Below, piece by piece: positions 7,907 through 53,068 of a DNA stretch of 53,068 nucleotides (the first letter of the stretch is position 1; the number at the start of each line of letters is the position of its first letter). The notes below the pieces were generated by a model. It was given only the letters and a program-made list of their open reading frames with translations, had not been told where the DNA came from and did no database searches. The stretch covers positions 1-53,068 of the IMG/VR virus record IMGVR_UViG_3300005298_000141; one strand, given 5' to 3'. A program made the position numbers and the translations under genes. This stretch comes from a virus. Its lineage: Duplodnaviria > Caudoviricetes.

Positions 7907-8770
7907 ATGAAGGAACTCAAGAAACTTTCCACCGTTGCTCAGGAAATCGCCGTCAGGAAATGGCCGCCTGTCTCCCCCGCTCTCCCGGCCACAGACTTTA
8001 CCATAGGCCATCTCCCTGACGGCAGCCCCATTGTCTGGCCGTCCAGACATCTGGACGGCACAGATGTGTGGCTCTGTATCACATGCGGGACTCATGCCGT
8101 TGACCTGGCTGATATTGATAGCGGCGTTAAAATAGACGCCGAATGGGACATCAGTGAGGTGGAAAAAGCCGTCCAATTCGCCAGTCGCGTCGCGGCAGAC
8201 CTTGAAGAGTCCCGACAGGCCATGCTGCGGCCAGACAGATACAACGCAGAGGAATTGGAAAAACAGGCCGGCCTCCTGTTTATATCCGGGCTCGTGAAAC
8301 CGGACTGGCGGCCTGGGTTCAACCTGCTCGCGCCAGCCGTCTGGGCGCTGAGCAAACTGCACAGGCCAGGCTACAGTACAGATGCCTCGTGGAAAGGCAC
8401 AGACGTCCGGCGCGCCGTCACCACTGCTGTTGGCATGAGTAGGACGCCATTTTACAGCGTTACAGTCTACTACGATTACAGCCGTGCTCCCTCAACTGCT
8501 CTCTTTGAACTCACGCGCGGCCTCTACGTCCGGTTTCTCGGACCCTGGGACGACAGATTCGTCACCGTCTCTCTGGTTCTCGGTGAGCCGGGAGACGACG
8601 TCCCGGTTTATAACTTCAGCCAGAGCGTCCTCTACAATGTGGTTGCAGAAACATGTATGTCCCCATATCAGGTACTGGAACTTGCTGACGCGGCGACCAC
8701 GCTGTTCCAACTGCTTTCCGGCGAAGGAGGTACAGAATGGTCACAGAGAGCCTTCTGGAAGAATTCTTGA
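7907..8770 (+). CDS. paralogue array member 6
   Basis: RKWPP, IVWP, AGLLFISGLV, LLAPAV, CMSPYQ. Confidence 0.85.
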   Translation: MKELKKLSTVAQEIAVRKWPPVSPALPATDFTIGHLPDGSPIVWPSRHLDGTDVWLCITCGTHAVDLADIDSGVKIDAEWDISEVEKAVQFASRVAADLEESRQAMLRPDRYNAEELEKQAGLLFISGLVKPDWRPGFNLLAPAVWALSKLHRPGYSTDASWKGTDVRRAVTTAVGMSRTPFYSVTVYYDYSRAPSTALFELTRGLYVRFLGPWDDRFVTVSLVLGEPGDDVPVYNFSQSVLYNVVAETCMSPYQVLELADAATTLFQLLSGEGGTEWSQRAFWKNS

Positions 8771-9537
8771 ACGCCACCCGCGAGGTGGCAAAACTGAGGT
8801 GGCCTGTTGCCAGGCCAGCGCTGGGCCTCCCCGTCCAGCGAGTCATCGGGAAGCGTGGCGACATAGATATCCTCTGGCCCGTCTCCAACGCGTCACTGAA
8901 CGCGCTGGACCTTGTTGAACTGGGTGGCCCCAAAATCCGTGTCAGTATCAGTTCCGTCGTTCAGTCCATCACCTCGCTGGAAGCGGAATTGGACGCATGC
9001 AAGGCCCTGGCCCGGAACCTGGACTGGCAAAGCCAGCACATCAGAGAAACGCAGCGCCGGAGCCTTGAGACTCTGGAGGATGAGGCAACGGCCGTTGCGC
9101 TGGCCGGCATCGGCGACCTTGCTTTCGTGCCTGAGTGCCTCACCCCGCTGACGCCCCTGGCGGTCAGAATCCAGGCGCTGCATCGCGAGGTGCCGGTGTC
9201 CAGAGTAAACGACCTGGTCACCTGCGTGCTGCGCCGGGAGATTTACCCGGCCAGTGCAAGCATCAAGGCTGAAATTACGGCCGTTGACGTTGAGGTCAGG
9301 TTCTGGCAGAACTTTCGGTTTGGGTGGATGGCACTGAGGTGCTCAACGCTCTACAGAGAGCAAACCGACATCTACCTGGTGTCTATCAATGAGAGCGGGA
9401 GAGAGATTGGCCTGAACGCCAGTCTCAGCGCCGTCGTCCACCACCTTGCAGATGTTGCCCATACGCCAGACGAGGCAGTATCGTTGCTTAATCGTCTGAA
9501 TTTCCTCATCACGTTTTTCGGGAGAGGGAGCGAATGA
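8737..9537 (+). CDS. paralogue array member 7
   Basis: LRWP, ILWP, EATAVALAG, PLTPLAVRI, AHTPDEA. Confidence 0.85.
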   Translation: MVTESLLEEFLNATREVAKLRWPVARPALGLPVQRVIGKRGDIDILWPVSNASLNALDLVELGGPKIRVSISSVVQSITSLEAELDACKALARNLDWQSQHIRETQRRSLETLEDEATAVALAGIGDLAFVPECLTPLTPLAVRIQALHREVPVSRVNDLVTCVLRREIYPASASIKAEITAVDVEVRFWQNFRFGWMALRCSTLYREQTDIYLVSINESGREIGLNASLSAVVHHLADVAHTPDEAVSLLNRLNFLITFFGRGSE

Positions 9538-10331
9538 AGGAAGCAACCATAACGCTGCTGAATGCGGCAGCAGAGGCAATCCGCCCACGCTGGCCGCACG
9601 CAAGACACATCCTGCCAGAAGAAAGAGACGTCTCCAGCCGAAGGATTGAGTATAGCGTGGTCTGGCCCGGCTACGGGGAAGGGAAAAAGGAGCCCGGCGA
9701 CCTCCTGCTATTCCGCTGCGGCACCCGGACCCGCCCTGAAGCCGTTGACCATCTCCTGGACCCCAGGAAACTGGCGTCCGCCGCAAAAGAATGCCGGGCA
9801 ATTGCCAAAGCCCGGGACAGAATGGCGCAGGAAATCCGCGAGTTGGAGTGCCAGGAGTTAAACGTTCTCATCGCAGAAGCGAATGCCCTCGTCGCAGCAG
9901 GGCTCGTCCCGGCAGACCTGCCAGGCGAGGAGTTTTACCCCCTCTATCCCATTGCTTCCCGTATCCTGTCCCTCCATACCCCCAGACTTGACACCAGTCC
10001 AGACGCGCTCCAGCGTGTCTTCCACGCCATTATCTCTGGTGAACTACCGTTCGGCATCAGAGTGGAAACCAGAGATTCCGTACAGTTAGCCACCATTACC
10101 GTCCTGGAATCAGCCGACACCGCTCTGCAAATGGATGCATCACTGCGAGCGTCAGGTGAAGTGTCCATATCCTGGAACGCCGTTGTGAACGGCAACCCAT
10201 TACCAATCGCAGCCAGTACATTCAGAATTTGCGTGGAGCGCGTTGCGGCCGTTTGCCCAACGCCACGTCAGGCGCTCCTGCTCATAAAGCGACTGGACGC
10301 CATCAGGCTCATGCTTCACCAGACGGAGTGA
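9534..10331 (+). CDS. paralogue array member 8
   Basis: RPRWPH, VVWPG, EANALVAAGLVP, PLYPIA, CPTPRQA. Confidence 0.87.
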   Translation: MKEATITLLNAAAEAIRPRWPHARHILPEERDVSSRRIEYSVVWPGYGEGKKEPGDLLLFRCGTRTRPEAVDHLLDPRKLASAAKECRAIAKARDRMAQEIRELECQELNVLIAEANALVAAGLVPADLPGEEFYPLYPIASRILSLHTPRLDTSPDALQRVFHAIISGELPFGIRVETRDSVQLATITVLESADTALQMDASLRASGEVSISWNAVVNGNPLPIAASTFRICVERVAAVCPTPRQALLLIKRLDAIRLMLHQTE

Positions 10332-10346
10332 GTACAGGAGGTCGGC

Positions 10347-11162
10347 ATGAAGGAAGAAACCATGCTTCTGTTGGGAGCGGCCAGGGAGGCCGTAAGACCT
10401 CGCTGGCCACACCCAAACGTAATATCGCATCACCTGCCAGCAGAACGCAACGTGTCACGTACATCAACCATCATTGTCTGGCCGGGATACAAAGGCGGAA
10501 AGCAGTGTCTCCATCACCTGCTGAATTTCAGAAGGGCATCAAGCACCATCCCAATTGAGCAGTCAGCATCCCTTGAACCGATGCTTGACCGCAACGAGGT
10601 GCTTCAGGCCACCAGAGAGTGCACTGAACTCTCTCAGCATCTTGACAGAATGGCGCAGGCCATCCGAGACCAGCAGAAAGCAGAGTTCGGGGCGCTGATT
10701 GCGGAAACAAATGCACTCCTGCTTGTCGGGGTTACTGACGAGCCACCAGGGGACTTTGCTCCGCTGTTCCCGGTCATCCACCGCATGCTCACTGTATGCC
10801 GTGCATGCGAAAATGGATTTGTTCGTCCTGACGCTTTCCGAAAACTGGCGTCGGATATAATTGCCAGGAAAACCCACCTGGGCATCTGTGTTGAAAGCAT
10901 GCCGCAGGAGTACGGCCAGTCGGTGGAGTTCATCATCGCAAACACCGGCGAGGCACGCCTGCACCTGTACACCGAACTGCGTGGCGAACGGGCTTTCGCC
11001 TCGTGGTTCGTCGCAGAGAGCGAAACTGTTCAGTACATTGCTGGCCACTCATACACGGCGAGCGCTATTAAGGTGTCAAAAGTATGCGGAACGCCCCACG
11101 AGGCCCTGGCGCTGAAACAGCGCCTGGACGTCATCATTTCTGCATTGGGAGGTGAAGCATGA
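10347..11162 (+). CDS. paralogue array member 9 (closest to member 8)
   Basis: RPRWPH, IVWPG, ETNALLLVG, PLFPV, CGTPHEA. Confidence 0.87.
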   Translation: MKEETMLLLGAAREAVRPRWPHPNVISHHLPAERNVSRTSTIIVWPGYKGGKQCLHHLLNFRRASSTIPIEQSASLEPMLDRNEVLQATRECTELSQHLDRMAQAIRDQQKAEFGALIAETNALLLVGVTDEPPGDFAPLFPVIHRMLTVCRACENGFVRPDAFRKLASDIIARKTHLGICVESMPQEYGQSVEFIIANTGEARLHLYTELRGERAFASWFVAESETVQYIAGHSYTASAIKVSKVCGTPHEALALKQRLDVIISALGGEA

Positions 11163-11971
11163 ACCAGGAATTGATGAACCGGTGGATAACCGTGGCCCAC
11201 CAGATTGCCCGACACAGATGGCCGGTGGTCCACGTGCCTCTTCCGCCGCAGAGGAAAATCGGGGAAAACCCTGAGGCTTCAACTTCACTGTACTGGCCGG
11301 GAAAGGGCGGGCGCGAGGGAGTGGAATACGTACTGGAACGTGGGCCCAAGGGGCAGCACCATTACTGGATTGGGAACGCGCTGGTTGAAAAATACGCTGA
11401 CCGACTCGCGGTGGCAAATGCCATCGCGGAGTGCGAGACGGCGCTGGCAACCATCTCCCACCTGACTGCCCTGGCCCAGAAGGATAAGGAGTACCAGACG
11501 CTGTCAGACATCGTAAATGCGCTTGTCCTGGCAGGCCGGGTCCACCACGAGAACATCGCCGACCTCGGCGAATTCAAGCCGCTCGTCGCTGTCTGCTACG
11601 AAATGCGGCAAATCGCAGGTAGGGACTGGCACGGTAGCAGGGTGAGAAATCTCGTTGAAGGCCTGATGGATGGCAGGGTTTTTTGTACGGAAGTCACAGT
11701 AATCCGAGAAAACGGCAGACTGGCACAGGTCAAAGCCCAGATATATCGCGGACTTTGCATAGTGTTCTACTTCTGGGGGCATGAATGGACCTCACTGGCA
11801 GACTGCTGGTTCGGCGTCCGGTATGACAACGAGTTGGAACTTCAGGCCATCGGCGAGACATATCGTGACCAGACCTGGCACATTTCGCATATATGCGAGT
11901 TGCCCGGTGAGGCCCTCACGCTACTGGATATTCTCACCGCTGTCAAAAGAATCCTCGGCTGGGAGGAGTAG
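11159..11971 (+). CDS. paralogue array member 10
   Basis: RHRWP, LYWPG, VNALVLAGRV, VRNLVEGLMDGRV, CELPGEA. Confidence 0.87.
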   Translation: MNQELMNRWITVAHQIARHRWPVVHVPLPPQRKIGENPEASTSLYWPGKGGREGVEYVLERGPKGQHHYWIGNALVEKYADRLAVANAIAECETALATISHLTALAQKDKEYQTLSDIVNALVLAGRVHHENIADLGEFKPLVAVCYEMRQIAGRDWHGSRVRNLVEGLMDGRVFCTEVTVIRENGRLAQVKAQIYRGLCIVFYFWGHEWTSLADCWFGVRYDNELELQAIGETYRDQTWHISHICELPGEALTLLDILTAVKRILGWEE

Positions 11972-11973
11972 AA

Positions 11974-12756
11974 ATGGACCTGAATGTGAAAGCATTCGTA
12001 GAAATGGCTGCGCGCGCGTCCGCGCCCAGGTGGCCTGCGGTTCGCCAACCATTGGTCAAAACCAGAAACATCGCCGCTGCCGGCAAGCAGATTTTCTGGC
12101 CTTGCCGTGACCGCCTGCTGCCGGAATGCCTGGGATACGTAAGCCAGGGGGATACAACCCTGCACGTCAGACACCCTGCTGTTGTTGAGCAGATAGACCC
12201 AGAGGCAGCAATCAGGGCGGAAATGGAATGCCGCGACTTCATTGAACAGGTTGAGAGGGAACTGGCATGGGTAAAAGAGATAGACCCGAACTACACCGCC
12301 CTTAAAGAAGAAACAGATGCGATGCTGCTTGCCAGGGTCATATCAGCAGAAACTGCAAGTATGCTTGGTGACAGGCTGCCGCTGGCCCCGTGCGTGTTCC
12401 TGGTAGAACGGCTAACGGACAAGGCATGGCCCGGCAGACAGGTCCGCCATCTGGTAGATGAGTTGATGAGTGGGCGCGTCATGACTTCTATCACCATAGA
12501 GATTGACATGTCCTACGGGGGGCTTCCATCAGCAGTTACAATTAATATGTTCGGCGAGTTGCGGCTTTTCTTCAGGTTCTGGGAGCATGGCTGGGGAGGC
12601 AATGCTCCTGCTCTACTGGTTGTTGAGGACGAGCAGGTTCTGGGATGGGATAGCATATCCCGTGCCATTGCCGCGTTCTGCCCTTCACCGTCTGATGCTG
12701 TAGCCCTCAAACATGCCCTCTTAACCATTCTGGAAATTCTGGAGGAACAGCCATGA
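11974..12756 (+). CDS. paralogue array member 11 (closest to member 10)
   Basis: APRWP, IFWP, ETDAMLLA, VRHLVDELMSGRV, CPSPSDA. Confidence 0.87.
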   Translation: MDLNVKAFVEMAARASAPRWPAVRQPLVKTRNIAAAGKQIFWPCRDRLLPECLGYVSQGDTTLHVRHPAVVEQIDPEAAIRAEMECRDFIEQVERELAWVKEIDPNYTALKEETDAMLLARVISAETASMLGDRLPLAPCVFLVERLTDKAWPGRQVRHLVDELMSGRVMTSITIEIDMSYGGLPSAVTINMFGELRLFFRFWEHGWGGNAPALLVVEDEQVLGWDSISRAIAAFCPSPSDAVALKHALLTILEILEEQP

Positions 12757-13484
12757 AGTCCATTCTGGAAACTGTCGCCGTGAAACACTTCCCCAAATTG
12801 CCTCCGGAAACCTGGGCGGAACTCCGGTCAGAATTGGGCCAGGAACCGCTCCGGTTCGGGCAGTGGACATGGCCAGCGCCCGGAGAATGGCCGGAGGCCC
12901 TCCGCTTCGCCAGGTCCGGCAACCATGACATCCCCATAGACCAACTGGACTCGCCGAAATTCGCGGCAGAAATGGCCCGGATTCAGCAGTGGTGCACAGA
13001 AGTCCTCGTTCCGCGCGTCCGGGATGAGTCCATGAAAATTGAGCACGAACAAAGTCACTACCGCACAGCCATAGAAGAGGAGGCACAAGCGATACTCCTG
13101 GCCGGCTTTGCCAGGACCTCGCGAGACGAACTCCTTGCATGGCTTCCCCTTGCTGCAAGAATGATGGCTCTCTACCAGACCGTCTGCACCTCGCCGCTCA
13201 TACTGTCCCCGTACCTCGTCACACTGCCAGAAGGCGACTACCTCGCCTACGCTGACATCACCATCCAGGACCAACTATGCCTGCTGGCACAGATACCCCG
13301 CGAATTTCCGGACATGGCCTGCCCTCGTTATTACGTGAGAGGCAGGTTCGCCGAGCACCACCCTGTATCAATCACCGGTGTGGCATACTGGCTGGAGGAC
13401 ACAATGCCTGTCAACGACTACGCCAGCATCATCCGCGCAATGGAGCGAATTGACGAAATCCTTCTGGCAAGGGGAGGCAAATGA
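12753..13484 (+). CDS. paralogue array member 12 (divergent)
   Basis: WTWP, EAQAILLAG, WLPLAARM. Confidence 0.8.
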   Translation: MKSILETVAVKHFPKLPPETWAELRSELGQEPLRFGQWTWPAPGEWPEALRFARSGNHDIPIDQLDSPKFAAEMARIQQWCTEVLVPRVRDESMKIEHEQSHYRTAIEEEAQAILLAGFARTSRDELLAWLPLAARMMALYQTVCTSPLILSPYLVTLPEGDYLAYADITIQDQLCLLAQIPREFPDMACPRYYVRGRFAEHHPVSITGVAYWLEDTMPVNDYASIIRAMERIDEILLARGGK

Positions 13485-14382: not shown

Positions 14383-14801
14383 AAATCGGTGAGGTGCTTT
14401 CTAAAGACTTGCTGGAAATTATCGCAGACACAGAGCAGGCAAGACAGGCCGCAGACGATTTGGCTGTCAGAATCCACGAAGACGGCCAGAGCCTCGGCAT
14501 CTTTGTCGTTGAGGTAGGAGTCAAGAGACCTTCAAAAAGCGGGATGTGGAAGAAATGCTGGCCCATCCCCGCGGCTGAAGGTAACTGGACAAAGGTACCC
14601 CCGAACAGCAAACTCTTCCGGAGATGGGTGCGCTATGCCAGAGAGAGAGGACTGTGGCTTGCCTGGGTGCAGGCCATTGTCCCGGAAAGTCGGAGCAACT
14701 GGCTGGCGCCAGCAAAGAGAAGAAAAAAGAGGGACACCCGGCAAACGCCGGGCGCCCTCATCCCACAGGAGGTGCAAGATGACCCGACTCCTAACAGGTA
14801 A
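14379..14801 (+). CDS. hypothetical protein
   Basis: 140 aa ORF with AGGAGG SD and its own promoter. Confidence 0.75.
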   Translation: MKIGEVLSKDLLEIIADTEQARQAADDLAVRIHEDGQSLGIFVVEVGVKRPSKSGMWKKCWPIPAAEGNWTKVPPNSKLFRRWVRYARERGLWLAWVQAIVPESRSNWLAPAKRRKKRDTRQTPGALIPQEVQDDPTPNR

Positions 14802-15017
14802 TAACTTCTCAGGTTTCTGTGCGTTATTACCTGTTAGGCCGCAACCCTGTCCTGCTGCTCGTGTACCGCAATTCTACCACAGAATACCCCAGCAGGCAAT
14901 ACTACTTTAGTGGTATTGACACAGTAATCCCGGAGTATGCACCGAACACAGACCGGTCACCGTCTTATTACCCTAAAGTGGTATTGACAAACTACCCAAA
15001 AGTAGTATACCCAACTC

Positions 15018-15139: not shown

Positions 15140-15168
15140 TTGACAAAACCGAAACTTTGTGGTATAAT
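15140..15168 (+). promoter_or_regulatory. consensus sigma70 promoter for the middle operon
   Basis: TTGACA-17 nt-TATAAT with TG extension, upstream of AGGAGGTG and ATG 15222. Confidence 0.9.
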
Positions 15169-35379: not shown

Positions 35380-35428
35380 GTCAATCCTCCTGTGATGAAA
35401 TGATAGGTGGCGAAAGACGAGAACCTGG

Positions 35429-35461
35429 TATGGGGTGGGGGTTTGCTACCCCCACCCCATA
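35429..35461 (-). terminator. 14-bp-stem hairpin after the tail tube gene
   Basis: TATGGGGTGGGGGT-ttgct-ACCCCCACCCCATA, with no clear U-run. Confidence 0.6.
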
Positions 35462-35468
35462 CGCCCTA

Positions 35469-39280: not shown

Positions 39281-39967
39281 CTACCCTCCAATCAGTTTTT
39301 GGGCAAGGACGCCAACAGGTGTGGCAACCTCACGCGCAATCGGGGTAACGGATGGACGAGGGGCGGCGTCCAGTGCTTTCTGGGCGACCTCCTGCGCCTG
39401 GCGCACCTGCTCACTGAGTGCGGCAACGACTTCCGACAGTTCGTTGACGCGTCCCTCAAGGTGCGCAACCACCTCAGTGAAGGACTTCTCTTCGCTGTTG
39501 GGCGCCGGGTAGGGGTAGCCGTACGCAGAGCCGCCCTCTTTGGCCATTTTCTCGGCGATTTTGTCGGCCTGCTCCTTGATAGACTTCGGCGCAATGCGTG
39601 ACAGAATGGCGGCCAGAGCGCCGAACTCTCCGGGCTTGGCAATACGGACGATGACAGCCAGCGCCTGCAGGTACTCCCGCACGCGCTCGCTTACATTGCC
39701 TTCGGCCAGAGCAGCAATCTGGCGCCCGAAGGTGGCAGCAGACTTCTCGCCCTCCTCCCATTCCTGGGCGGTGTCGTCATCGGCCCCGTCGCCAGCGGGG
39801 TTGCCAACAGACTTGCTCGTCAGGCCGGCGTCGTCAAGCGTCTGCTCAAGCCGACTGGCGGCCTCCAGCAAATCTTCCAACTCTTTGGCAAGAGCGTCGG
39901 GGCTGGTCTCCTCAATGACGACATCCTCGTCACCTGTGGTAACGACCTCCAGTTCATCTTTCGTCAT
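39281..39967 (-). CDS. scaffold-like protein
   Basis: Acidic coiled-coil protein between the protease and capsid genes. Confidence 0.7.
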   Translation of the reverse strand: MTKDELEVVTTGDEDVVIEETSPDALAKELEDLLEAASRLEQTLDDAGLTSKSVGNPAGDGADDDTAQEWEEGEKSAATFGRQIAALAEGNVSERVREYLQALAVIVRIAKPGEFGALAAILSRIAPKSIKEQADKIAEKMAKEGGSAYGYPYPAPNSEEKSFTEVVAHLEGRVNELSEVVAALSEQVRQAQEVAQKALDAAPRPSVTPIAREVATPVGVLAQKLIGG

Positions 39968-42900
39968 TCCATTCCTCCCCCAATGTTGTCAATGGGAAAT
40001 GTTGTCCAGGGATTGGCGGCCATCCCGGCAGGCAGGATGCTGACTTCTCGCAGTACCATCCTGACGATTTGGGACGGGTCATTAGGGTCACGCAATCCCC
40101 AGAAGCCAATGGATGTTGCCCACCCGTTGGGCGCAACTTTTGGATGTCCCATTGGGTGTGCGGACAGGAAACTTTTCAGAAACCTTGCCTTCGGTGTATT
40201 ACGGAACTTCCCGATGCCGAAAACGAACTTCCCGTGTGGTACAAACGCAACCAGGTCCGCGATGTCTGTCCCATCCCGGTGAGCAATCCGAACCGTCGCT
40301 CCGGCAGGCTGGTGTGCTACCAGAGATTGGACTGCTGACCGTGTAACAAAATCTCCATGCAGGTCAAGGTATCTATTGGTAACCGGCAGGATTATCCAGT
40401 CCCCCACTATTTTATAGCAAATTGCTCCGGAACGCAAGCGCGGCAGGAGTGCGAGGAAGATTTTCCAGGGCAGGTGCGGCCAGCGGCGGACGGCCTTTGC
40501 CAGCCAGGATTTCAGGGATACCTTAACCGGACGGTCATCGGACAGCGGGTCACGATAGAAGAACACCTCGTGTCCCCGCTGAGCAAGCCTGGAGCGAATC
40601 CGCTCCAGAGACTCCCGGCGCGCGACAGGTTCACCCCCGGCCTTTACTGTCCAGACGCCAGGCTCTATTCTCTGGAACGCAAGACGAAGGGGGGCACCCC
40701 GGCGGCCGTGTAGCACCACCTCAACGAAGTGGCGGTTCCATGTCCCGGCACTGTACGTACCCCAGTCAACAGCATCAAATCTGGCGTACTTCTGGCTGGT
40801 AGAACCCACTTCACCAGGGCCGGACACAAACGGCTCGCCCTTGCCGATTTCCAGCCAATCAATCGGTTGTGGCTGCTTGGGGGCACATCGCAGTACCTTC
40901 CCGTCCTTCAGTGCCTGCCAGGGGTCATCAACTTCCTCCTCGGAGAAAACCGTGAACCCGAAAAGGTAACCACCGTCACCCGCAGTCATGCGAATATCAT
41001 AGTGAACCGAATGGCCTTCCGGCGGGTTGTCCACTTCCTCGCGGGTCAGGCCGCGAATGTGCCTCTGGACGATAAACCGCCCATGCCCATCGGTTGGATA
41101 GTATTCTTGCCATTTTGCTTCCCAGGTGGCCTCGGCGCGTTCGCTTCTTGTATCGCCCGGAAGTACATCGTCGGTTTCCTCTGTAAGTGCTTTCACCACA
41201 CGCTCAAGTTCTCTGTAGTGCGGGATTTGCTCCGCCTTGTCCTGGACTTCCTTTAGCCATTTCCCTTTTTCTGGTTTGAAGTTGGTGATGATGAGTTCAG
41301 GATGCGGACGGGTGCCACGACCGGAATCATCTAACCGTGCTGCAATCACACGGAACGCGTGCCAGGTGTCCGGCAATTTCACTCCGGACTTTCTTACGTC
41401 ATCAGGCTCACATGAGAGAATGAACTTGCCCCGAATGGTTTTCAGCAACTCCAACAGCCTGGCAAACTGCCCTATGGTGAACGGGTGCTTGTACTTAGCC
41501 TCTGTGACATCAGAAGTAGGATACGGCGGGTCCAGGTAAAACAGCACATCCTTTCGCCGCCGCAGCCTGCGGATAATGTCAAACGCATCGGCGTTCAGAA
41601 TCTCCACGCCGCGAAGTCGGCGTTTCAGTGCAAGATACGTCCCGGTCGGAAGCCTGTGTCTGCGATGGTTCGGAGGCCAGTCAACTGATTCGTATCCGCG
41701 ATAAAATCTGTTACCGACCATCATGAACAGGGCGGCCTCTCGGCCAGAGCGGGGCGTCTGCTCTTTCAACATGCGTTGGGTTTCCCTTGTTAGTGGCGTT
41801 CTGCGTGCCTCCTCAACCACTTCGGCAATCTCGGCATCGGACGCCCTTTGGATAAAACGGTAGCAAGCAATCTTCGCCCTGTCTATATCTCCGATGACCT
41901 CCTTGCCAATCTTTGGCTTTAGAGCAAAGAATCCCAGCGTCCCTACAAACGGCTCACAGTATAATGCATGTTCTGGGAAGAGTTCAAGGATTGCCCTGGC
42001 TATGCGCGCTTTTGTGCCGACACCCTGGAACGGCATAGGTCCACCAGCAAACCACTTTCTGGTTGCCTTCGCATTTGCATGCTCCAGCATGACACGCATT
42101 GCCTGCTGAAGCGTGTAGGGGGCCCCTTCATTGACCTCCGTGACGACCGCGTTCTGGAACTTCAGCGAGTCGCCGGACGGAACCAGTTCCTGGCAGATTA
42201 CCGTGACTGTATCCCCCGGCTTTGCCCGGATACGAGTGACCATTGTCTTGCCCGTTGGCTTTCCGTCCGCCCATTCGCACTCGTACACCCAGCCGTTTTC
42301 CTTTTGCTCGGTGCTTACAACACGGGCCCGCACCTCAAGCATGCGTTTCACCTTGCTCCACGACTGGCTTGGGCCTGCGGAAATGGTTGACCGCAGGTCT
42401 TTGGCGACAATGCCCTCCGAGCCGGGCAGGAAGGCAAGTCTGTCATACGCCGCTTCCAACTCCTGCTTGTTCTCAACAACTACGGCCGGGGTGAGGAATT
42501 CCTCCGGCACTATTTTCTCAAGGACTTTTCGCCTCTCTTCATACGGTGTGTCGTCACTCACACCATGACCGGACAGAACGTCAAAGAACCTGGGACGAGC
42601 GGCCCAGTCAATCTTCTGACCTGATAGCACGGCCGGCATCAGATGACGCGGGACGACCCGGCCCTTTGCCACCATGAGGAGTTCACCATCCAGTTCAACT
42701 GGTTCCCCCTCGGTGTTCAATTCCTTGACGACGTCGGCAAAGTACGCAGACACGTCCTTGCCGCTTTCTGTCACTGCCCTGAAGGAACCGTCACCGTCAA
42801 CCGTCAGTTTAACCCGCCAGCCGTTCCACTTCGGCTCAACCGCAAACGGCGCATGGGAATGCCCCCATGCCTCCCACATCTGGTCGGGGGAGAAGTGCTC

Positions 42901-43275
42901 AAAGTAGAACGGTACTGCGGGCTTCATCGGCCATGACCCAGACTTTCCCTCCTCCTGTGGCGCGGTCGCCGATTTGATTTCCACTATCTCCGGTCGTTTT
43001 ACCCTCAATACCAGGTCGGCTATCGGGATGTAGTCGGAGTGTGGGCCTGTGGGTTCCGGGATGATGTGAAGTGGGATGTCATGGCGGTCAATCCCTGACC
43101 GTTCGGCGATAAGATTCCGTAATTGGAGCAATACGCTGTCCGCCGGTATGGTCAGCGCATCTCCGATAAGTTCTGCACGCACGACCACATCAATGTCTCC
43201 GGGATTATCGTCCCGTACAGCGCCACCAGCAACCGACACGAAGTCACTCACCAGGACCAGGTCTGTATCCGTCAT
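39964..43275 (-). CDS. multidomain protein: ATP-dependent DNA ligase, D12-class N6-adenine methyltransferase, LigD 3'-phosphoesterase-like domain, HK97-type prohead protease
   Basis: Ligase: EPKWNGWR, LDGEL, FFDVL, EGIVAKD, WSKVK. MTase: EPFVG, FYLDPPY, ELIITNF. Phosphoesterase-like: FIVQRH...HYDIRM. Protease: DLHGD...AH...SIGF...REVSILP...AANP. Confidence 0.85.
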   Translation of the reverse strand: MTDTDLVLVSDFVSVAGGAVRDDNPGDIDVVVRAELIGDALTIPADSVLLQLRNLIAERSGIDRHDIPLHIIPEPTGPHSDYIPIADLVLRVKRPEIVEIKSATAPQEEGKSGSWPMKPAVPFYFEHFSPDQMWEAWGHSHAPFAVEPKWNGWRVKLTVDGDGSFRAVTESGKDVSAYFADVVKELNTEGEPVELDGELLMVAKGRVVPRHLMPAVLSGQKIDWAARPRFFDVLSGHGVSDDTPYEERRKVLEKIVPEEFLTPAVVVENKQELEAAYDRLAFLPGSEGIVAKDLRSTISAGPSQSWSKVKRMLEVRARVVSTEQKENGWVYECEWADGKPTGKTMVTRIRAKPGDTVTVICQELVPSGDSLKFQNAVVTEVNEGAPYTLQQAMRVMLEHANAKATRKWFAGGPMPFQGVGTKARIARAILELFPEHALYCEPFVGTLGFFALKPKIGKEVIGDIDRAKIACYRFIQRASDAEIAEVVEEARRTPLTRETQRMLKEQTPRSGREAALFMMVGNRFYRGYESVDWPPNHRRHRLPTGTYLALKRRLRGVEILNADAFDIIRRLRRRKDVLFYLDPPYPTSDVTEAKYKHPFTIGQFARLLELLKTIRGKFILSCEPDDVRKSGVKLPDTWHAFRVIAARLDDSGRGTRPHPELIITNFKPEKGKWLKEVQDKAEQIPHYRELERVVKALTEETDDVLPGDTRSERAEATWEAKWQEYYPTDGHGRFIVQRHIRGLTREEVDNPPEGHSVHYDIRMTAGDGGYLFGFTVFSEEEVDDPWQALKDGKVLRCAPKQPQPIDWLEIGKGEPFVSGPGEVGSTSQKYARFDAVDWGTYSAGTWNRHFVEVVLHGRRGAPLRLAFQRIEPGVWTVKAGGEPVARRESLERIRSRLAQRGHEVFFYRDPLSDDRPVKVSLKSWLAKAVRRWPHLPWKIFLALLPRLRSGAICYKIVGDWIILPVTNRYLDLHGDFVTRSAVQSLVAHQPAGATVRIAHRDGTDIADLVAFVPHGKFVFGIGKFRNTPKARFLKSFLSAHPMGHPKVAPNGWATSIGFWGLRDPNDPSQIVRMVLREVSILPAGMAANPWTTFPIDNIGGGME

Positions 43276-45388: not shown

Positions 45389-46837
45389 TTATAGCATATA
45401 CCGGCTGGCACGATAGGCGGCCATCGCCATTGCGACGATGACATCATTGTGCCCCTGGTCAACGACCGTGAAGCGGTTGGCTTTGGGGTCCCAGCCAGTG
45501 CTTTTGTACTGGCGTTCTATTATTGGGAGCAAGCTTTCTGGTATCAGGATTGCTCTTAAGCGAAAAAGGGAGTACAGGAACGAGTCGGCCAGCGAACGGG
45601 ACTGTTGCGGGAAGGAGCGGACATACGCCTTATAGTCTCTGGCGAGGTTCTGGGCCATGTAATGCAACTGGTATGGGTCGTAGGCAATCTCAATGACCGG
45701 GTAGCGGTCAGTCAGGTCCCGCAACAGGTTCTCGGCCTCTGAAAAGTCCACGCGCTGAGAACGAGGGTCCATGACGTGAACGAAGCGAACAAGGTATTTC
45801 CCTTCGCCGACCGGTGAGACGCCGACAATGGCAAATGTGGCGCGGGCGAACCCGGCGTCCACACCGATGACGACCTCTTTTCCCCTGGGGGCGACCAATG
45901 ATTCGGCTTCGCTATCCGGGATGACGCAGGCATTCAGCCAGGCAATCGGGAGGGCCATTGCGGAAGGGGAGACCCACTGGTTCAGGTGGATTCTGGCAAA
46001 CTCGTGCTCCGGCAGGTGTCGCCGTTGCGACTCGTAGTACTCCGGTTTTTGCCAGCCGAACCGGGTCAGCGCTTCCTCTCCGCAATCGTAGTAGTACAGA
46101 AGTTTGCCTGCCGGTGACACCATGACCTTTCCGGCCAGTTCCGGGGAGCGCGTCTTCACCACCAGCCCGGACGATTTCGCCTCGTTGTACAGTGTCTCCA
46201 GGACAGAGCCCTGGCCCAGGTACCCGGCATAGGACTCCACCCACCTGATAGCGTGAGGTACGGTAGGCGGTGGGGTCAGTTCTACCCAAAGGGATTTCTT
46301 ATTGGGTGTGGTGTAGGCCCACACCTCGGTAAAGACGGTCATGGCGGGGTTTGCCCCCGCCGCCCCGGGTGCGTTCACCGGGAGAGGGTAAATCTTTGAC
46401 CCGTTCGGCAGAACAACTTCCGACTGGGTAATCCTGGCCTGGACGATAGGGTTCAGTTCCAGCGAGTTTACGACGGCCTGGAACACCCGGTCGGTCGCCT
46501 GTCGGCCGTCGTTGGCCAGAAGGATGATTTCGGACCCCGGGAACAGAAACGCGTACCACAGAGTCACCGCCGCCGCAACGAGAGTTTTCCCGGTCTTCTT
46601 GGGCGATGACCACACAATGGTCTGGAAGTTAAATACGGAGCCGCTTCTGGAGAGGGCAATCTGGAGCAGTTCCCGCTGGAACTCCTTGAAGCGGATAGGC
46701 CCGGGTGGGAGGACCTCGCCGGTCTCTGGGGAGAGCGGTGCCTGGACCCAGAAGCAGTGTTCCATCCATGCTACCGGGTCCGCAATTGCCAGCGCCATCA
46801 GGTCAATCTTCTGATTCGTCTGCTTCGTCCGACTCAA
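45389..46837 (-). CDS. terL: terminase large subunit
   Basis: FQRE (Q motif), Walker A PKKTGKT, HLNQW, nuclease IGVDAG, YDPYQ, HNDVIVAMAMA. Confidence 0.92.
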   Translation of the reverse strand: MSRTKQTNQKIDLMALAIADPVAWMEHCFWVQAPLSPETGEVLPPGPIRFKEFQRELLQIALSRSGSVFNFQTIVWSSPKKTGKTLVAAAVTLWYAFLFPGSEIILLANDGRQATDRVFQAVVNSLELNPIVQARITQSEVVLPNGSKIYPLPVNAPGAAGANPAMTVFTEVWAYTTPNKKSLWVELTPPPTVPHAIRWVESYAGYLGQGSVLETLYNEAKSSGLVVKTRSPELAGKVMVSPAGKLLYYYDCGEEALTRFGWQKPEYYESQRRHLPEHEFARIHLNQWVSPSAMALPIAWLNACVIPDSEAESLVAPRGKEVVIGVDAGFARATFAIVGVSPVGEGKYLVRFVHVMDPRSQRVDFSEAENLLRDLTDRYPVIEIAYDPYQLHYMAQNLARDYKAYVRSFPQQSRSLADSFLYSLFRLRAILIPESLLPIIERQYKSTGWDPKANRFTVVDQGHNDVIVAMAMAAYRASRYML

Positions 46838-50260: not shown

Positions 50261-50464
50261 TCACTGCTCCAACTGGACACTATCCGGCTCCGGGTAGCAG
50301 TTCATCAACCATTGCAGAACTGCCCTCAGTGTCCTTGACAGCGATGGCCTGGCAATCGGGCTCTTCGGTGGAAACAGTTTCTGCCCCAGCGTGAGAAGCC
50401 ATTGGGCCTGTTCTTTTGTAAGCACAACAGTTGTGATGACCGCTTCCTCCTTACGCTCTTCCAT
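50261..50464 (-). CDS. putative ribbon-helix-helix regulator
   Basis: GGAGG SD. TTVVLTKEQAQWL...SLSRTLR has a strand-helix-helix pattern. Confidence 0.6.
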   Translation of the reverse strand: MEERKEEAVITTVVLTKEQAQWLLTLGQKLFPPKSPIARPSLSRTLRAVLQWLMNCYPEPDSVQLEQ

Positions 50465-50645
50465 GTTTCCTCCATTCTGCACGCATGATGTAATAGAACA
50501 ACAGCCCGCCCCATACTGCAGAAATGCACATGGCCGTACGTTCACCGAGACGAAGAACAATAAACAGAAAAACTGTGCTGACAAGAGAGAAAACCAGAAT
50601 TAACATAAGCACTCTAATAATAATTGCTACCATCGGTACCCCCAC
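50451..50645 (-). CDS. small two-TM membrane protein
   Basis: 64 aa, hydrophobic, first ORF after the 50693-50721 promoter. Confidence 0.55.
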   Translation of the reverse strand: MGVPMVAIIIRVLMLILVFSLVSTVFLFIVLRLGERTAMCISAVWGGLLFYYIMRAEWRKHGRA

Positions 50646-50692
50646 AATTCCTGAACTTGCTTTTGTTTGTCGTGCTCTAATGGCTCACAACT

Positions 50693-50721
50693 ATTATAAC
50701 ATAAGTCGCCGGAATTGTCAA
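50693..50721 (-). promoter_or_regulatory. consensus sigma70 promoter heading the minus-strand operon
   Basis: Minus strand TTGACA-17 nt-TATAAT. Confidence 0.88.
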
Positions 50722-50898
50722 GCGTTAATGGGTGCGTTTGGGTGGGTTCGGGGGAATTTTAAGAAACTTTTAAGGTTTGGTGGGGAAAAATTAAAACAAA
50801 TATCGTCCATTGTTTCATTTGTTTCGTTTTATTCCATTGTGCCACCAGCCCGTTTTGCCCGGCCGCTTGCCCGTCTTTTCATGGAAAGCAAATCTTCA

Positions 50899-50995
50899 CA
50901 AAAAAGCAATGAGGCCCGGCCCAGGGAAGGGGGGGAACCCGCAAGAGACACACCGAAAGGAGGTGCTGAGAAGCCGGAGGCCAGGCCGGGCCTCG
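50899..50995 (-). ncRNA. candidate small RNA carrying an anti-Shine-Dalgarno sequence
   Basis: Own promoter, 11-bp perfect closing stem, internal CACCUCCUUUC, trailing U-run. Confidence 0.55.
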
Positions 50996-51001
50996 TGAGC
51001 C

Positions 51002-51030
51002 ATGATATATCATCCCCACTAAAGTGTCAA
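51002..51030 (-). promoter_or_regulatory. sigma70-type promoter of the candidate sRNA
   Basis: Minus strand TTGACA-17 nt-TATCAT. Confidence 0.75.
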
Positions 51031-51107
51031 GCGCCGCTGCGCAAATATTAACTGCTACCCATCATCACCTGGAAACCCCCTACGCTATGCTGTCGCCTAT
51101 CTCCCTA

Positions 51108-51404
51108 TCAGGTGCCTGCGCCTCCCCCTACCCGCCAAATGCTACCACCCTGCTTCATCTCGCTCTCCGGCACACCAGCAAAAAACCAACCAACCGGACA
51201 ATGATACACCTCCGCAAGCGTCTCCAACTGACACAGCGTCGGCGACTCCAAAGTCTCATCATCCATTTCCCCCATCTCCCACCTGACCAGTTCGTCAACA
51301 CTCACCGGACACCCATAAGGTACCACAACAGTCAGCCGGGATACTTCCTCGTAACTGTAGCCCAGCCTCTCTCTGGCATACCTCAACGCCTCTGGCTTTA
51401 TCAT
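51108..51404 (-). CDS. XRE-family HTH regulator
   Basis: LRYARERLGYS...WEMG...PTLCQLETLAEVYHCPVGWFF. GGAGGTG SD precedes ATG 51404. Confidence 0.85.
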   Translation of the reverse strand: MIKPEALRYARERLGYSYEEVSRLTVVVPYGCPVSVDELVRWEMGEMDDETLESPTLCQLETLAEVYHCPVGWFFAGVPESEMKQGGSIWRVGGGAGT

Positions 51405-51936
51405 TTTTCCACCTCCGCTGATACGCCGTCCATTGATACCGTACCACAACGCAAAGAAAAAGTCAAGAGACGATTATTTGAACAGGGGAAAAGGGAAGCG
51501 GTGAGTAAAAGGGTTGGACTATGCCTGTCAGCCATTTTTATGATAATTATCACGTATATCCCCCAAACTTTCAAAATATTTCAAACCCCCTACTTTATCC
51601 CACTTATCTTTTTTATCACCCTTTTCGCCGTATTATTCTTTTTAGCCCAAATAACGCCAATCTTCATTATCGCCGGTATCTCCAAAACGATATAGCGATT
51701 ATCGTTGTGGCGCGGTTTTTGTTTATCCTCAACATCATCCTCAACATCCGGGCTTGCCCGCAGCACAAATTGCAAAGTCTATGTTTTAGTCTTTTTTAAA
51801 CTTTCGGCCTTCTTTATCTACGATACCGAAATTCGTAGTTTGGGCATCCGCAAATTGTGAACTGCGAAATTTGGAAGCACTTTGTGTTATTAAGTCAATA
51901 AGGTTTTGTGGAAAAAGAAATAGTACTACGGTACTA

Positions 51937-51964
51937 TTTACAAATTTTTTGCACGGGTTATCAT
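51937..51964 (+). promoter_or_regulatory. putative early promoter
   Basis: TTTACA-16 nt-TATCAT in an AT-rich region, upstream of AAGGAGGTG and ATG 52004. Confidence 0.5.
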
Positions 51965-52003
51965 GGTGTTGACAAACGAACGTTTTTCCGCAAGGAGGTG
52001 AAT

Positions 52004-52225
52004 ATGGAGGTAAGGGTGAAACAGGGCCTGCACAAGGGCCACAAATGCGTGGCCACGGTAGGCCGGGAAGATGGAAAGGTGATGTACCATGCCCGATGCC
52101 TGACTTGTCAGACGATGGCTGTCTACGAGAACGTGAATGGGCAATGGTACTATCGGAAGGGGGACAGATACTTGTCCCCCGCGCATACTCATACCCATGC
52201 CCATTTCAAAGGAGGGAAAAAATGA
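52004..52225 (+). CDS. small Cys/His-rich protein
   Basis: AAGGAGGTG SD. HKC...CLTC. Confidence 0.7.
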   Translation: MEVRVKQGLHKGHKCVATVGREDGKVMYHARCLTCQTMAVYENVNGQWYYRKGDRYLSPAHTHTHAHFKGGKK

Positions 52226-52896
52226 CACAGATGAACATCAGCCCAGAAGAGCTCTTGCTTCTTCAAGAAGCCAGAAGGCTTGGCATCACCAGCCGACTGG
52301 CGGAAATGATTAAGCAAGAAAAGGAAGAACGGGAACGGAAGCAAGCCGCCGAGAAAGCCGGTACCCTGGCGTACCGGATTTACCAGGCCGCCACCGGCAT
52401 CGTGAACGGCGACCAGAGCGTTACCGTTACCATTACGGTAACGGTAGAATACGAAAGCGGCAAATTCGTCGTGGGAACCTACCCGCCGCAAACGAGAAGC
52501 CGGACCGAGAAGGCCAAGACCGGGCCCACTGCCGACACCGAGATTGACCGAATCATTGAGGCGGCAAGGCGGGCGGGAGTCCTTGACCAAGTTGAGAAGG
52601 CGGTCAAACAGGAGTTTGACCGCAGGAAACTCAAGCTATGGCAAGGACTGAAGGTAGCGCTACGGTCGGCATGGGCGCGGGAAATTGCTTACCGCTTTGT
52701 TCCTAAACCCGACCCGACCCAGGCCGACCCGACCCAGGCCGACCCGACCCAGACCGACCCGACCCAGGCCGACCCGACCCAGGCCGACCTGACCCAGACC
52801 GACCCGACCCAGACCGACCCGACCCAGACCGACCCGACCCAGACCGACCCGACCCAGACCGACCCGACCGCCGGGCATCGCCGCCAGAAGAAGTAG
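52222..52896 (+). CDS. hypothetical protein with C-terminal DPTQ(A/T) repeats
   Basis: GGAGG SD and ATGA overlap at 52222. Followed by a terminator. Confidence 0.75.
   Translation: MTQMNISPEELLLLQEARRLGITSRLAEMIKQEKEERERKQAAEKAGTLAYRIYQAATGIVNGDQSVTVTITVTVEYESGKFVVGTYPPQTRSRTEKAKTGPTADTEIDRIIEAARRAGVLDQVEKAVKQEFDRRKLKLWQGLKVALRSAWAREIAYRFVPKPDPTQADPTQADPTQTDPTQADPTQADLTQTDPTQTDPTQTDPTQTDPTQTDPTAGHRRQKK
52711..52869. repeat. 15-bp in-frame tandem repeat GACCCGACCCAG(G/A)CC, 10 full copies plus a partial
   Basis: Read directly. Encodes DPTQA/DPTQT. Confidence 0.95.
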
Positions 52897-52905
52897 ACCG
52901 ACGGC

Positions 52906-52947
52906 AACACGGTGGGGGATAACAAAATATCCCCTACCGTGTTTTTT
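52906..52947 (+). terminator. intrinsic terminator
   Basis: AACACGGTGGGGGATA-acaaaa-TATCCCCTACCGTGTT followed by TTTT. Confidence 0.85.
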
Positions 52948-52976
52948 GGCGAGAAATAAAGAAGATAAACACAGGT

Positions 52977-53050
52977 ACCGACCCGACCAGACCGACCCGA
53001 CCAGACCGACCCGACCAGACCGACCCGACCAGACCGACCCGCCCAGACCG
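52977..53050. repeat. 14-bp tandem repeat, same unit as 1-66
   Basis: Read directly. About 4.5 copies, then degenerates. Confidence 0.93.
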
Positions 53051-53068
53051 AAGCACCCAGACACACCA

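Follow-up and report, generated by a model that had tools for sequence, protein, structure and literature searches.

The DNA studied here is a phage contig of 53,068 nucleotides (IMG/VR record IMGVR_UViG_3300005298_000141, the whole of which is called the window). Between its divergent plus- and minus-strand gene blocks lies a short element for which the sequence alone had suggested a small RNA of about 90 nt with a copy of the 16S rRNA anti-Shine-Dalgarno tail. The question is whether such an RNA is encoded at this locus, on which strand, and what it might act upon. Our analysis favours, with a probability of roughly 0.45, a regulatory RNA cassette linked to the neighbouring HTH gene, the C-rich loops of which would pair with ribosome-binding sites either in trans or in cis. 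The features of the locus are compiled in Table 1.

Table 1. Features of the RNA element and its surroundings, in coordinates of the window
Feature	Position	Strand	Basis or remark
-35 hexamer TTGACA	51025-51030	minus	within conserved block CGCTTGACA (51033-51025)
-10 hexamer TATCAT	51002-51007	minus	17-nt spacer to -35
Predicted structured RNA core, 84 nt, own 5′ and 3′ ends paired	50911-50994	minus	covariance model R1, RNAalifold
Closing stem, 5′ arm GAGGCCCGGCC	50984-50994	minus	perfect 11-bp inverted repeat
Closing stem, 3′ arm GGCCGGGCCUC	50911-50921	minus	perfect 11-bp inverted repeat
Hairpin 1, GGCC-UCC-GGCU	50972-50982	minus	first CCUCC 50980-50976; block GCCUCCGGCUU invariant in 3/3 contigs
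Hairpin 2, CACC-UCCUUUC-GGUG, 16S-tail-like string	50951-50965	minus	block CCUCCUUUCGGU invariant in 3/3 contigs
C-rich tract, C7 (50935-50929) then UUCCC, mostly unpaired	50924-50935	minus	fold
Tail AUUGCUUUUUUGUG, U6 run 50905-50900	50897-50910	minus	possible 3′ end, weak as terminator
HTH gene, 98 aa, probably Cro/CI (XRE)-type	51108-51404	minus	adjoins RNA in 3/3 contigs
Tandem promoter TTGACA-17-TATAAT, 12/12, with TG	50693-50721	minus	heads structural gene block; outside RNA

Transcription would begin at a predicted near-consensus promoter of the sigma-70 type (51030-51002); the coordinates of the original prediction were all correct. The pattern TTGACA-N17-TATNAT occurs at 3 sites in the 53,068 bases, where 100 shuffles give an expectation of 0.00, and in a local promoter scan the RNA promoter reached 11/12, exceeded only by the 12/12 site at 50721-50693, which is likewise kept in the two related contigs L006 (95% identity) and L002. 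Homologous RNA promoters with 17-nt spacing are found at 1817-1845 in L002 (TTGACA, TATCAT) and at 1939-1967 in L006 (TTGACA, TAACAT). By consensus matches they rank second in each of the three contigs, with ties at 11/12 in L002 and 10/12 in L006. The distance from promoter to stem is fixed at 6-7 nt in all of them, and the predicted transcription start, 6-8 nt past the -10 hexamer, falls on the base of the closing stem. Trans-acting C-rich sRNAs have a promoter of their own, and by sequence prediction this element has one as well.

The closing stem proposed earlier was confirmed as a perfect inverted repeat of 11 bp and is kept in all three contigs. By itself it is weaker evidence than the promoter. 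Perfect inverted repeats of at least 11 bp within 100 nt occur at 10 loci in the window, and 24 inverted-repeat matches of 11-mers were observed, where a first-order Markov model gave a mean of 1.87 and a maximum of 7. The long interior of 62 nt is unique to the RNA locus among these 10. The claim that G-U pairs extend the stem on the minus strand only had to be given up: inward extension brings the minus strand to 14 pairs (U-G, G-U, G-C), and outward extension brings the plus strand to 13 (U-G, A-U). The strand is not picked by folding energy either, as the plus strand (-44.0 kcal/mol, z -3.37, 0 of 200 shuffles equally good) folds at least as well as the minus strand (-41.9 kcal/mol, z -2.38, 3 of 200). 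Two one-sided changes among the copies, U-G/C-G and A-U/G-U, would turn into A.C mismatches on the plus strand.

The minus-strand core has an RNAalifold consensus energy of -32.8 kcal/mol and is scored by the covariance model R1 with 95.9 bits in the window, 90.0 in L006 and 77.7 in L002. Its interior is G-poor and C/U-rich, and both hairpin loops begin with UCC. In the window fold, hairpin 1 is unpaired with a probability of about 0.5-0.9; in hairpin 2 the corresponding value for the loop UCCUUUC is at least 0.9, and CACC is held in pairs. The C-rich tract is the cheapest part to open (0.5-0.9 kcal/mol). C-rich motifs are thus left unpaired in the manner of RoxS/RsaE-like RNAs, the UCCUUUC loop and the C-run being open at about 0.5-0.9 or more, with CACC, or CGCC in the relatives, held in a stem. 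The second CCUCC, the C-rich tract and the U-run described before were all found in place. The U-run follows the stem after a gap of 5 nt and comprises U6 in the window and U4 in L006, and there is none in L002. The terminator scan made no call at the RNA site with its 62-nt interior. A mere terminator would consist of a short-loop G+C hairpin with a conserved U-tract; here the interior measures 62-66 nt and L002 has no such tract. From the proposed sRNA of about 90 nt, the promoter-driven, non-coding minus-strand RNA is retained as conserved in 3/3 contigs, and it is the discrete transcript that becomes doubtful, the U-run being weak in L006 and absent from L002. A riboswitch was considered and rejected, since a closing stem of such length and stability would not switch and Rfam gave no match.

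Only two relatives were found, L006 and L002/G001. Both carry promoter and RNA, which by alignment form a conserved island in all three contigs. Identity to L006 amounts to 89% for the promoter and 84% for the RNA, against 66% and 63% for the intergenic flanks and 50% for the tail. In the comparison with L002, no other part of 51466-50800 is aligned by blastn; the blocks GGCCCGGCC, GCCTCCGGCTT, CCTCCTTTCGGT and GGCCGGGCC are intact in L002 despite the absence of a blastn alignment. Both CCUCC motifs are invariant in 3/3 contigs, and L006 and L002 retain a C5 run. The closing stem is paired in all three sequences, L002 having an extra G in the 5′ arm and an extra C opposite, and standard pairs occupy 57 of the 57 pair cells of the alignment, which comprises three sequences with no pair changed on both sides and for which shuffle controls were uninformative (500/500). 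The suggested search for covariation thus yielded one paired G-C insertion and no double-sided change.

Rfam 15 gave no match across the whole window at the gathering threshold, and at E values up to 10 the region 50400-51500 gave two chance-level rows of archaeal C/D-box RNAs at 51203-51266, outside the element. A blastn query with 50400-51500 had no match among 50,697 phage records. When the two loop blocks served as exact patterns, L002 was the sole viral contig to match and no genome contig did; relaxing the patterns brought up 31 viral stretches, then 5 viral and at least 120 genome stretches (80 kept as loci). When R1 was run on the fetched loci, only the three known copies scored, followed by L125 with E 0.32 and 23.7 bits, and neither the window nor the complete G001 record contained a second copy by this model. 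With the 589-aa neighbour and the terminase as protein queries, the searches led to L002/G001, L006, L005, which ends just before the element, and three distant or short contigs without it; the HTH protein alone as a query found nothing. As to the host, there were no tRNA genes and no prophage relatives in reference genomes, and the protein atlas returned only 'Viruses'. None of 30 proteins matched PHROGs at an E value of 0.001 or better. The RNA is a plausible candidate for a translation regulator of a familiar kind. If real, it would represent a family not described before, from a phage lineage in which almost nothing is annotated; its practical value is limited because only three sequences are available.

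The HTH gene is the neighbour that stays. Its homologues are 84% and 39% identical to the window protein, and Pfam HTH_3 is sub-threshold in all three (best E 0.014). An AF2 model (pLDDT 82) retrieved DdrO, P22 c2, the 434 repressor and SinR in Foldseek with target TM-scores of 0.82-0.85, at E values of only about 0.01, so that the protein is probably a small, Cro/CI-like, repressor-like one according to this model. The gene is placed upstream of the element in the window and in L006. In L002 it comes after the element, which would form its 5′ leader with a gap of 29 nt, free of any promoter, from stem to start codon. With the cassette free behind the repressor-like gene in one arrangement and serving as its leader in the other, the lineage offers a natural experiment on action in cis versus in trans.

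Conservation of the promoter, the stem and the loops, together with the lack of coding potential and the adjacency to the HTH gene, is what the three contigs establish at the sequence level. On this basis we propose that a sigma-70-type promoter would start the transcript at the foot of a G+C-rich stem of 11-14 bp, which would tie the 5′ and 3′ ends of the RNA together. By pairing with the purine-rich SD regions of phage messages, the exposed C-rich stretches could then reduce the translation of these messages. The RNA probably doubles as the 3′ end of the HTH message in the window and L006, and in L002 it would be the 5′ leader. Since the RNA is coupled to the HTH gene in either position, the HTH message is its most likely constant partner, and plus-strand genes with strong SD sites are the likely wider set of targets. 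Transcription itself, both RNA ends and the pairing with SD sites are what we infer from these features.

Much of the same evidence could be read as an untranslated region of the HTH message acting purely in cis, in which the C-rich stretches fold onto the SD site of their own message and set its translation and decay in the manner of the icaR 3′ UTR. The RNA adjoins the HTH gene in 3/3 contigs although the order is swapped; the scan found nothing terminator-like from the HTH stop to the RNA in the window or L006, and in L002 the sole terminator-like site follows the HTH stop (2226-2248). For the HTH start region, pairing was predicted at -8.4 kcal/mol in the window, -8.1 in L006 and -7.0 in G001. 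In L006 and L002, CCCCCU of the RNA would pair with AGGGGG of the HTH site. This closely parallels the 3′ UTR of icaR in Staphylococcus aureus, which has a UCCCCUG motif complementary to the SD site UAGGGGG of its own message (PMC3868564). However, the strong promoter directly before the RNA in the window and L006 would produce a transcript without the HTH coding region, and the HTH site is not the top predicted partner of the RNA. It ranks about 3rd among 53 start regions of the window and 14th among 61 of G001, and the RNA sites involved differ between genomes. The HTH SD of L002 is already masked by a local hairpin that does not involve the element, and no covariation between the HTH SD and the RNA was seen in the three contigs. 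An effect confined to cis is for these reasons rather unlikely in our estimation, and the cassette acting in trans or in cis is kept as the preferred reading.

Quite unlikely, too, is a purely structural role, in which the stem protects the 5′ end and separates the HTH unit from the strong structural promoter as a terminator or insulator, with loops that pair with nothing. It would agree with the predicted start at the base of a highly stable stem, with the U-rich tail in the window and L006, and with the RNA being the first terminator-like feature past the HTH stop. A stem function, however, needs none of the loop blocks of 11 and 12 nt that remain invariant where the surrounding DNA no longer aligns; the missing U-run in L002 and a 62-nt interior atypical of intrinsic terminators, which the scan did not call, also speak against it.

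Which messages the loops of the proposed regulatory cassette could reach was addressed with a simple helix-plus-accessibility score on our own crude gene-start calls; the predicted energies are modest. By this score 52 gene start regions (median -5.0 kcal/mol) pair better than 30 intragenic windows (-2.1 kcal/mol; one-sided Mann-Whitney p = 1e-4), and 30 plus-strand starts (-5.6 kcal/mol) better than 22 minus-strand starts (-2.7 kcal/mol; p = 0.0035). The start region of the first early gene (51988-52000) matches the RNA at 12 of 13 positions in the window only. L006 and L002 have no such gene there; their early promoter leads directly into the homologue of the next gene, at whose start site only the SD core matches. 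RNA positions 45-57 give a 13-nt match to the start region of gene 15222, again in the window only. In both the list of contiguous matches and the accessibility-corrected score the matches were of a generic SD type, and no specific target was conserved. Strong SD sites are so common in this phage that none of its messages stands out as a target, which weakens the SD-occluding role suggested at the outset. Some approaches to targets were abandoned: duplexfold over the whole length yields unrealistic duplexes of 50 nt, in co-folding only the U-tail was paired because the enclosed loops need a pseudoknot, and the tail of the RNA matches the late leader only through A/U-rich sequence of low complexity, a complementarity that is lost in L006.

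The likeness to the 16S tail invites a more global view. The string CACCTCCTTTC at 50955-50965 is the sole exact copy in the window. Its nine letters CCUCCUUUC are conserved, and this much of the claimed copy persists; CACC is not, being CGCC in L006 and L002, where the pair in hairpin 2 is kept as A-U becomes G-U, and 4 of the 11 letters lie within the hairpin stem. To make the motif single-stranded takes about 5.3-5.7 kcal/mol for the window RNA and 3.5 for that of L006. An abundant mimic of the 16S 3′ tail that competes with ribosomes for strong SD sites, or titrates a factor recognising the tail, would make use of the invariant nine letters and the near-consensus promoter. It would also suit the stronger SD sites of the plus strand (strong at 26 of 34 gene starts and -10.0 kcal/mol on average, versus 11 of 22 and -8.3 kcal/mol on the minus strand), to which better RNA binding is predicted. 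We nevertheless regard it as very improbable, with the motif half buried, CACC unconserved and strong SD sites likewise used by phage structural genes, among them the 589-aa gene and the terminase gene. The specific scenario of a 16S-tail stand-in made in bulk by the phage, which would turn down host and early messages in favour of structural genes with weaker SD sites, seems improbable as well. The RegB nuclease of T4 cuts GGAG sites, and such a stand-in would be its RNA counterpart.

That the element works as DNA, be it as an operator pair, a single-strand initiation site by the AT-rich repeats or a recombination site, is most improbable. The inverted repeat does adjoin an AT-rich, repeat-bearing region, and the equally good folding of the plus strand would be expected; yet a promoter is conserved at its fixed distance from the stem, both one-sided changes stay paired only as G-U on the minus strand, and RNA and promoter have moved as a unit relative to the HTH gene.

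Coding can be excluded, given indels of 1, 2 and 5 nt among the copies and a start codon conserved on neither reading. The SD-like GGAGG of the plus strand had rightly been considered no ordinary ribosome-binding site: no ATG, GTG or TTG follows 3-13 nt after it in the window, L006 or L002, and the promoter scan found no conserved plus-strand promoter upstream of the element. The small membrane protein is encoded by a 64-aa hydrophobic ORF 270 nt downstream (50645-50451). That the element serves as its antitoxin-like antisense RNA, or as an SD-like stabiliser or mini-OR​F using the strong plus-strand string, is the least likely reading, as L002 has the RNA without the membrane ORF, co-occurrence and complementarity with a hydrophobic toxin gene as in type I toxin-antitoxin systems are lacking (at the membrane gene start no pairing better than -6.6 kcal/mol is predicted for the window, and none better than -2.9 for L006), and the plus strand offers neither a start codon after its GGAGG nor a conserved promoter upstream.

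The regulatory cassette linked to the HTH gene resembles several known systems in part. The lambda oop RNA, the terminated PR′ leader and the HK022 put RNA are short structured promoter-proximal phage transcripts. With them the element would share a constitutive promoter and a place in the control region upstream of a long late block; in contrast to them, a stronger second promoter lies between element and late genes, a gene follows in L002, and there is no sequence likeness. The c4 RNA is processed from the leader of the operon under its control. Its loops in P1 and P7 pair around the ribosome binding site (PMC12197685), and the comparison extends to a phage control-region RNA with loops, in L002 placed in the leader of a gene that it possibly controls. 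Unlike c4, the element has no Rfam match, lies behind the neighbouring gene in 2/3 genomes and shows no extended specific complementarity to a downstream target. RoxS binds SD sequences via C-rich regions and thereby blocks initiation (PMC5419742). RoxS/RsaE of Firmicutes and the phage RNA have a short length and open C-rich stretches in common, the latter with two CCUCC loops and a C-run. The phage RNA differs in being phage-borne, in having its ends tied by a long stem without a clear terminator hairpin, in the lack of a sequence or Rfam relationship, and in that its targets are predicted only. With the icaR 3′ UTR it would share a C-rich UTR motif of a repressor message directed against its own SD, possibly in cis or trans; here, rather, the element has its own promoter and a closed conserved fold, occurs at either end of the gene and is known from sequence alone.

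The idea that the RNA promoter and the late promoter share an operator was also considered and discarded, as the inverted pair ATGGCTCAC/GTGAGCCAT is unconserved in L002 and partial in L006. The control region of this lineage as a whole combines three tandem or divergent consensus promoters with a Cro/CI-like gene and the RNA.

We interpret the minus-strand element (84-nt core, 50994-50911) as a cassette for a regulatory RNA, located in the phage control region. The RNA would be transcribed from its own near-consensus promoter, a stable closing stem would protect it and define its ends, and invariant C/U-rich loops together with a C-run would pair with purine-rich ribosome-binding sites. The message of the adjoining HTH gene would be its constant neighbour, and plus-strand genes with strong Shine-Dalgarno (SD) sites the likely wider set. 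The three systems closest in working principle are the C-rich sRNAs RoxS/RsaE (PMC5419742), the c4 immunity RNA of P1/P7 (review PMC12197685) and the anti-SD motif in the icaR UTR (PMC3868564). A narrow literature search on phage-encoded anti-SD small RNAs found nothing related, which is no proof of absence.

The element is real and conserved. Searches of viral, metagenome and genome collections with the 589-aa neighbour protein, the terminase, the HTH protein and several DNA patterns returned only two contigs holding the region, both of which carry it; the lineage of the window phage is rare. L006 is a 3.7-kb metagenome contig, colinear with the window and 80.6% identical across the 2.6 kb aligned. 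L002 belongs to G001, a complete record of 51.3 kb, in which the 589-aa protein is 73% and the terminase 88% identical to those of the window. Compared with L006, identity reaches 89% in the promoter, 84% in the RNA and 86% in the HTH coding region; it is 66% and 63% in the flanking intergenic DNA and 50% in the U-tail. With L002, blastn aligned nothing across 51466-50800; this contig contains, in order, CGCTTGACA-17-TATCAT, GGCCCGGCC, GCCTCCGGCTT, CCTCCTTTCGGT, a C5 run and GGCCGGGCC. A coding reading of the element is excluded by indels of 1, 2 and 5 nt. A covariance model made from the three copies gives them 95.9 (window), 90.0 (L006) and 77.7 bits (L002), and found no further match in the window, the whole of G001 or 116 loci fetched by loose patterns. 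The Rfam search named in the original prediction matched no family. Judged from three sequences of a predicted RNA, the element appears to represent a new RNA family within a known kind of regulator.

The cassette is linked to the HTH gene. The product of this gene is assigned to the Cro/CI (XRE) type by its modelled fold (AF2, pLDDT 82): Foldseek retrieved the DNA-binding domains of DdrO, P22 c2, the 434 repressor, SinR and ImmR with target TM-scores of 0.82-0.85 and E-values of only ~0.01, and Pfam HTH_3 stayed below threshold in all three homologues. Identity to the window protein is 84% in L006 and 39% in L002. On the minus strand of the window and L006, the HTH gene precedes the RNA promoter and the RNA, and no terminator-like site was found between HTH stop and RNA. 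The order in L002 is RNA promoter, RNA, a 29-nt gap, HTH gene and a terminator-like hairpin. Cassette and gene thus remain neighbours although their order differs, and from the sequence they could share one transcript in each layout. The main rival explanation is built on this linkage: by analogy with icaR (PMC3868564), the element may be a UTR part of the HTH message that acts purely in cis. Its predicted pairing with the HTH start region amounts to -8.4 (window), -8.1 (L006) and -7.0 kcal/mol (G001). As a predicted partner this region is good in all three genomes but not the best, with a rank of about third of 53 (window) and 14th of 61 (G001), and the RNA site predicted to pair with it differs between the genomes. 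The antitoxin role offered in the original prediction is removed, because L002 carries the RNA but lacks the nearby small membrane protein, encoded downstream of the late promoter in the window and in L006.

A promoter for the RNA was located as predicted, with TTGACA at 51030-51025, a 17-nt spacer and TATCAT at 51007-51002 on the minus strand. The pattern TTGACA-N17-TATNAT has three sites in the window genome against 0.00 in 100 shuffles, far above chance expectation. By itself the stem is less remarkable: the perfect 11-bp inverted repeat (50984-50994 / 50911-50921) was found as described, and such repeats within 100 nt occur at 10 loci of the window (24 11-mer matches versus 1.87 in simulated genomes). 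The nine other loci, among them 14790-14838, 35428-35462 and 325-354, carry perfect inverted repeats with arms of 11-16 bp and spacers up to about 20 nt; they are far more numerous than in simulated genomes and probably terminators or protein sites. For the element itself, a DNA-level site is a lesser rival.

The fold is maintained in all three sequences. The first 11-12 nt pair with the last 11-12 nt, hairpin 1 (GGCC-UCC-GGCU) and hairpin 2 (C(A/G)CC-UCCUUUC-GGUG) are common to all, and the 3' interior is long, G-poor, mostly open and contains the C-run. All 57 pair cells of the consensus are standard pairs. No pair among the three sequences changed on both sides, which leaves the shuffle controls uninformative (500/500). 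The closing stem of L002 is one G-C pair longer, with the G on the 5' side and the C on the 3' side. The claim that the stem extends by G-U pairs on the minus strand only did not hold, as the plus strand also extends (U-G, A-U); folding of both strands gave the longer stem on the minus strand (14 versus 13 pairs) but a slightly better fold on the plus strand (z -3.37 versus -2.38). The assignment to the minus strand comes mainly from the conserved promoter, which each of the three contigs places 6-7 nt from the stem. It is further supported by a U-rich tail in two of the three and by two substitutions, the window's U-G pair being C-G in L006 and its hairpin 2 A-U pair G-U in both relatives, which in an RNA from the plus strand would turn into A.C mismatches. 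Another of the lesser rivals is a structural stabiliser or terminator. The GGAGG on the plus strand is no ordinary ribosome-binding site, with no ATG, GTG or TTG following at SD spacing.

The motif CACCUCCUUUC (50965-50955), the second CCUCC (50980-50976), the C7 run (50935-50929) and the U6 run (50905-50900) are all in place. The reading of CACCUCCUUUC as a copy of the 16S tail stands in part: only CCUCCUUUC is invariant, and CACC reads CGCC in both relatives, a change that tracks hairpin pairing and not rRNA likeness. A global mimic of the 16S tail is likewise a lesser rival. The ensemble prediction has CACC paired and UCCUUUC open. Opening the 8-9-nt anti-SD stretches takes 5.3-5.7 kcal/mol in the window RNA (3.5 in the L006 RNA); the C-rich tract needs 0.5-0.9 and sites of the hairpin 1 region 0.9-2.9. 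With CCUCCUUUC invariant, CACC paired and this opening cost high, the motif is conserved yet half buried, which lies between support and the buried, unconserved segment that would have spoken against the original prediction. Overall, element and conservation are borne out and the anti-SD reading partly so.

Strong SD sites, with a binding energy to the 11-mer of at most -8 kcal/mol, are usual in this phage. By our own crude gene calls, 26 of the 34 starts on the plus strand and 11 of the 22 on the minus strand have one (mean binding -10.0 and -8.3 kcal/mol). Those listed near 784, 19674, 22655 and 51992 are genuine and belong to genes starting at 797, 19688, 22668 and 52004. A simple pairing score sums the helix energy and the cost of opening each of the two RNAs. 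Its median is -5.0 kcal/mol over 52 start regions versus -2.1 over 30 intragenic windows (p = 1e-4), and -5.6 over 30 plus-strand starts versus -2.7 over 22 minus-strand ones (p = 0.0035). Such a preference is expected of any anti-SD-like RNA, and the score singled out no target. The first early gene, 52004-52225 (+), has 73 codons, four cysteines and a strong SD. Both relatives lack it at the equivalent position, and their early promoter is followed directly by the homologue of gene 52222-52896. As a specific target it was rejected: its 12/13 match (51988-52000) is not kept, only the SD core matching in L006 and L002.

Coordinates of genes, promoters and associated sites in the window
Feature	Position	Strand	Remarks
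HTH gene	51404-51108	-	98-aa product, predicted Cro/CI (XRE)-type by fold
Terminase (weak match)	45389-46837	-	inside minus-strand gene block
Late promoter, TTGACA-17-TATAAT	50693-50721	-	perfect, TG upstream; head of structural gene block; conserved in L006 and L002
Box CTTAAAAGTTTCTTAAAAT	50756-50774	-	unique; ~35 nt upstream of late-promoter -35 hexamer
Early promoter, TTTACA-16-TATCAT	51923-51964	+	palindrome GTACTACGGTAC upstream, abutting -35 hexamer
Third TTGACA-N17-TATNAT site, TTGACA-17-TATAAT	15140-15168	+	within plus-strand block, just upstream of gene starting 15222

The box near the late promoter is identical in L006, partial in L002 and present twice in L005, a contig cut just before the element, and may thus be an activator or UP-type site. 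The palindrome at the early promoter is a candidate operator, since the arrangement is the same in L006 and L002; its ligand is perhaps the HTH protein. The palindrome pattern is not statistically unusual within the window. The third site may be a middle promoter.

The window, a whole IMG/VR virus record (53,068 bases, class linear, CheckV completeness 100), has a plus-strand gene block from ~51.9 kb through the record end to ~23.9 kb and a minus-strand block from 50645 down to ~23.7 kb. The element sits in the 1.3-kb control region separating them, where G+C falls to 0.48. Annotation is very poor: PHROGs gave no match at E <= 0.001 for 30 window proteins, and among those scanned Pfam identifies only an AAA ATPase, a DUF2201 protein, a helicase, a ligase-methyltransferase fusion and the terminase. 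The fusion, a 1103-aa protein (39964-43275, -) with an ATP-dependent DNA ligase and a Dam-type N6-adenine methyltransferase domain, is encoded within the otherwise structural minus-strand block. Seven successive ORFs of 243-287 codons at 7907-13484 (+) may be a paralogue array; two of them scanned against Pfam, one also against PHROGs, gave no match. Roughly a dozen PTQ(A/T)D pentapeptide repeats form the end of the 52222-52896 (+) protein, and the DNA repeat encoding them extends to the record end (52700-53068), a possible reason for the assembly ending at this point. The relative G001 belongs to the class with direct terminal repeats. The drop in G+C coincides with an AT-rich stretch (~51560-51760) of many GATAA-like repeats, including two tandem copies of the 12-nt ATCCTCAACATC (51725-51748); this stretch, which has a comparable CGATAA-rich counterpart at 1355-1440 of L002, may be an origin or a binding-site array.
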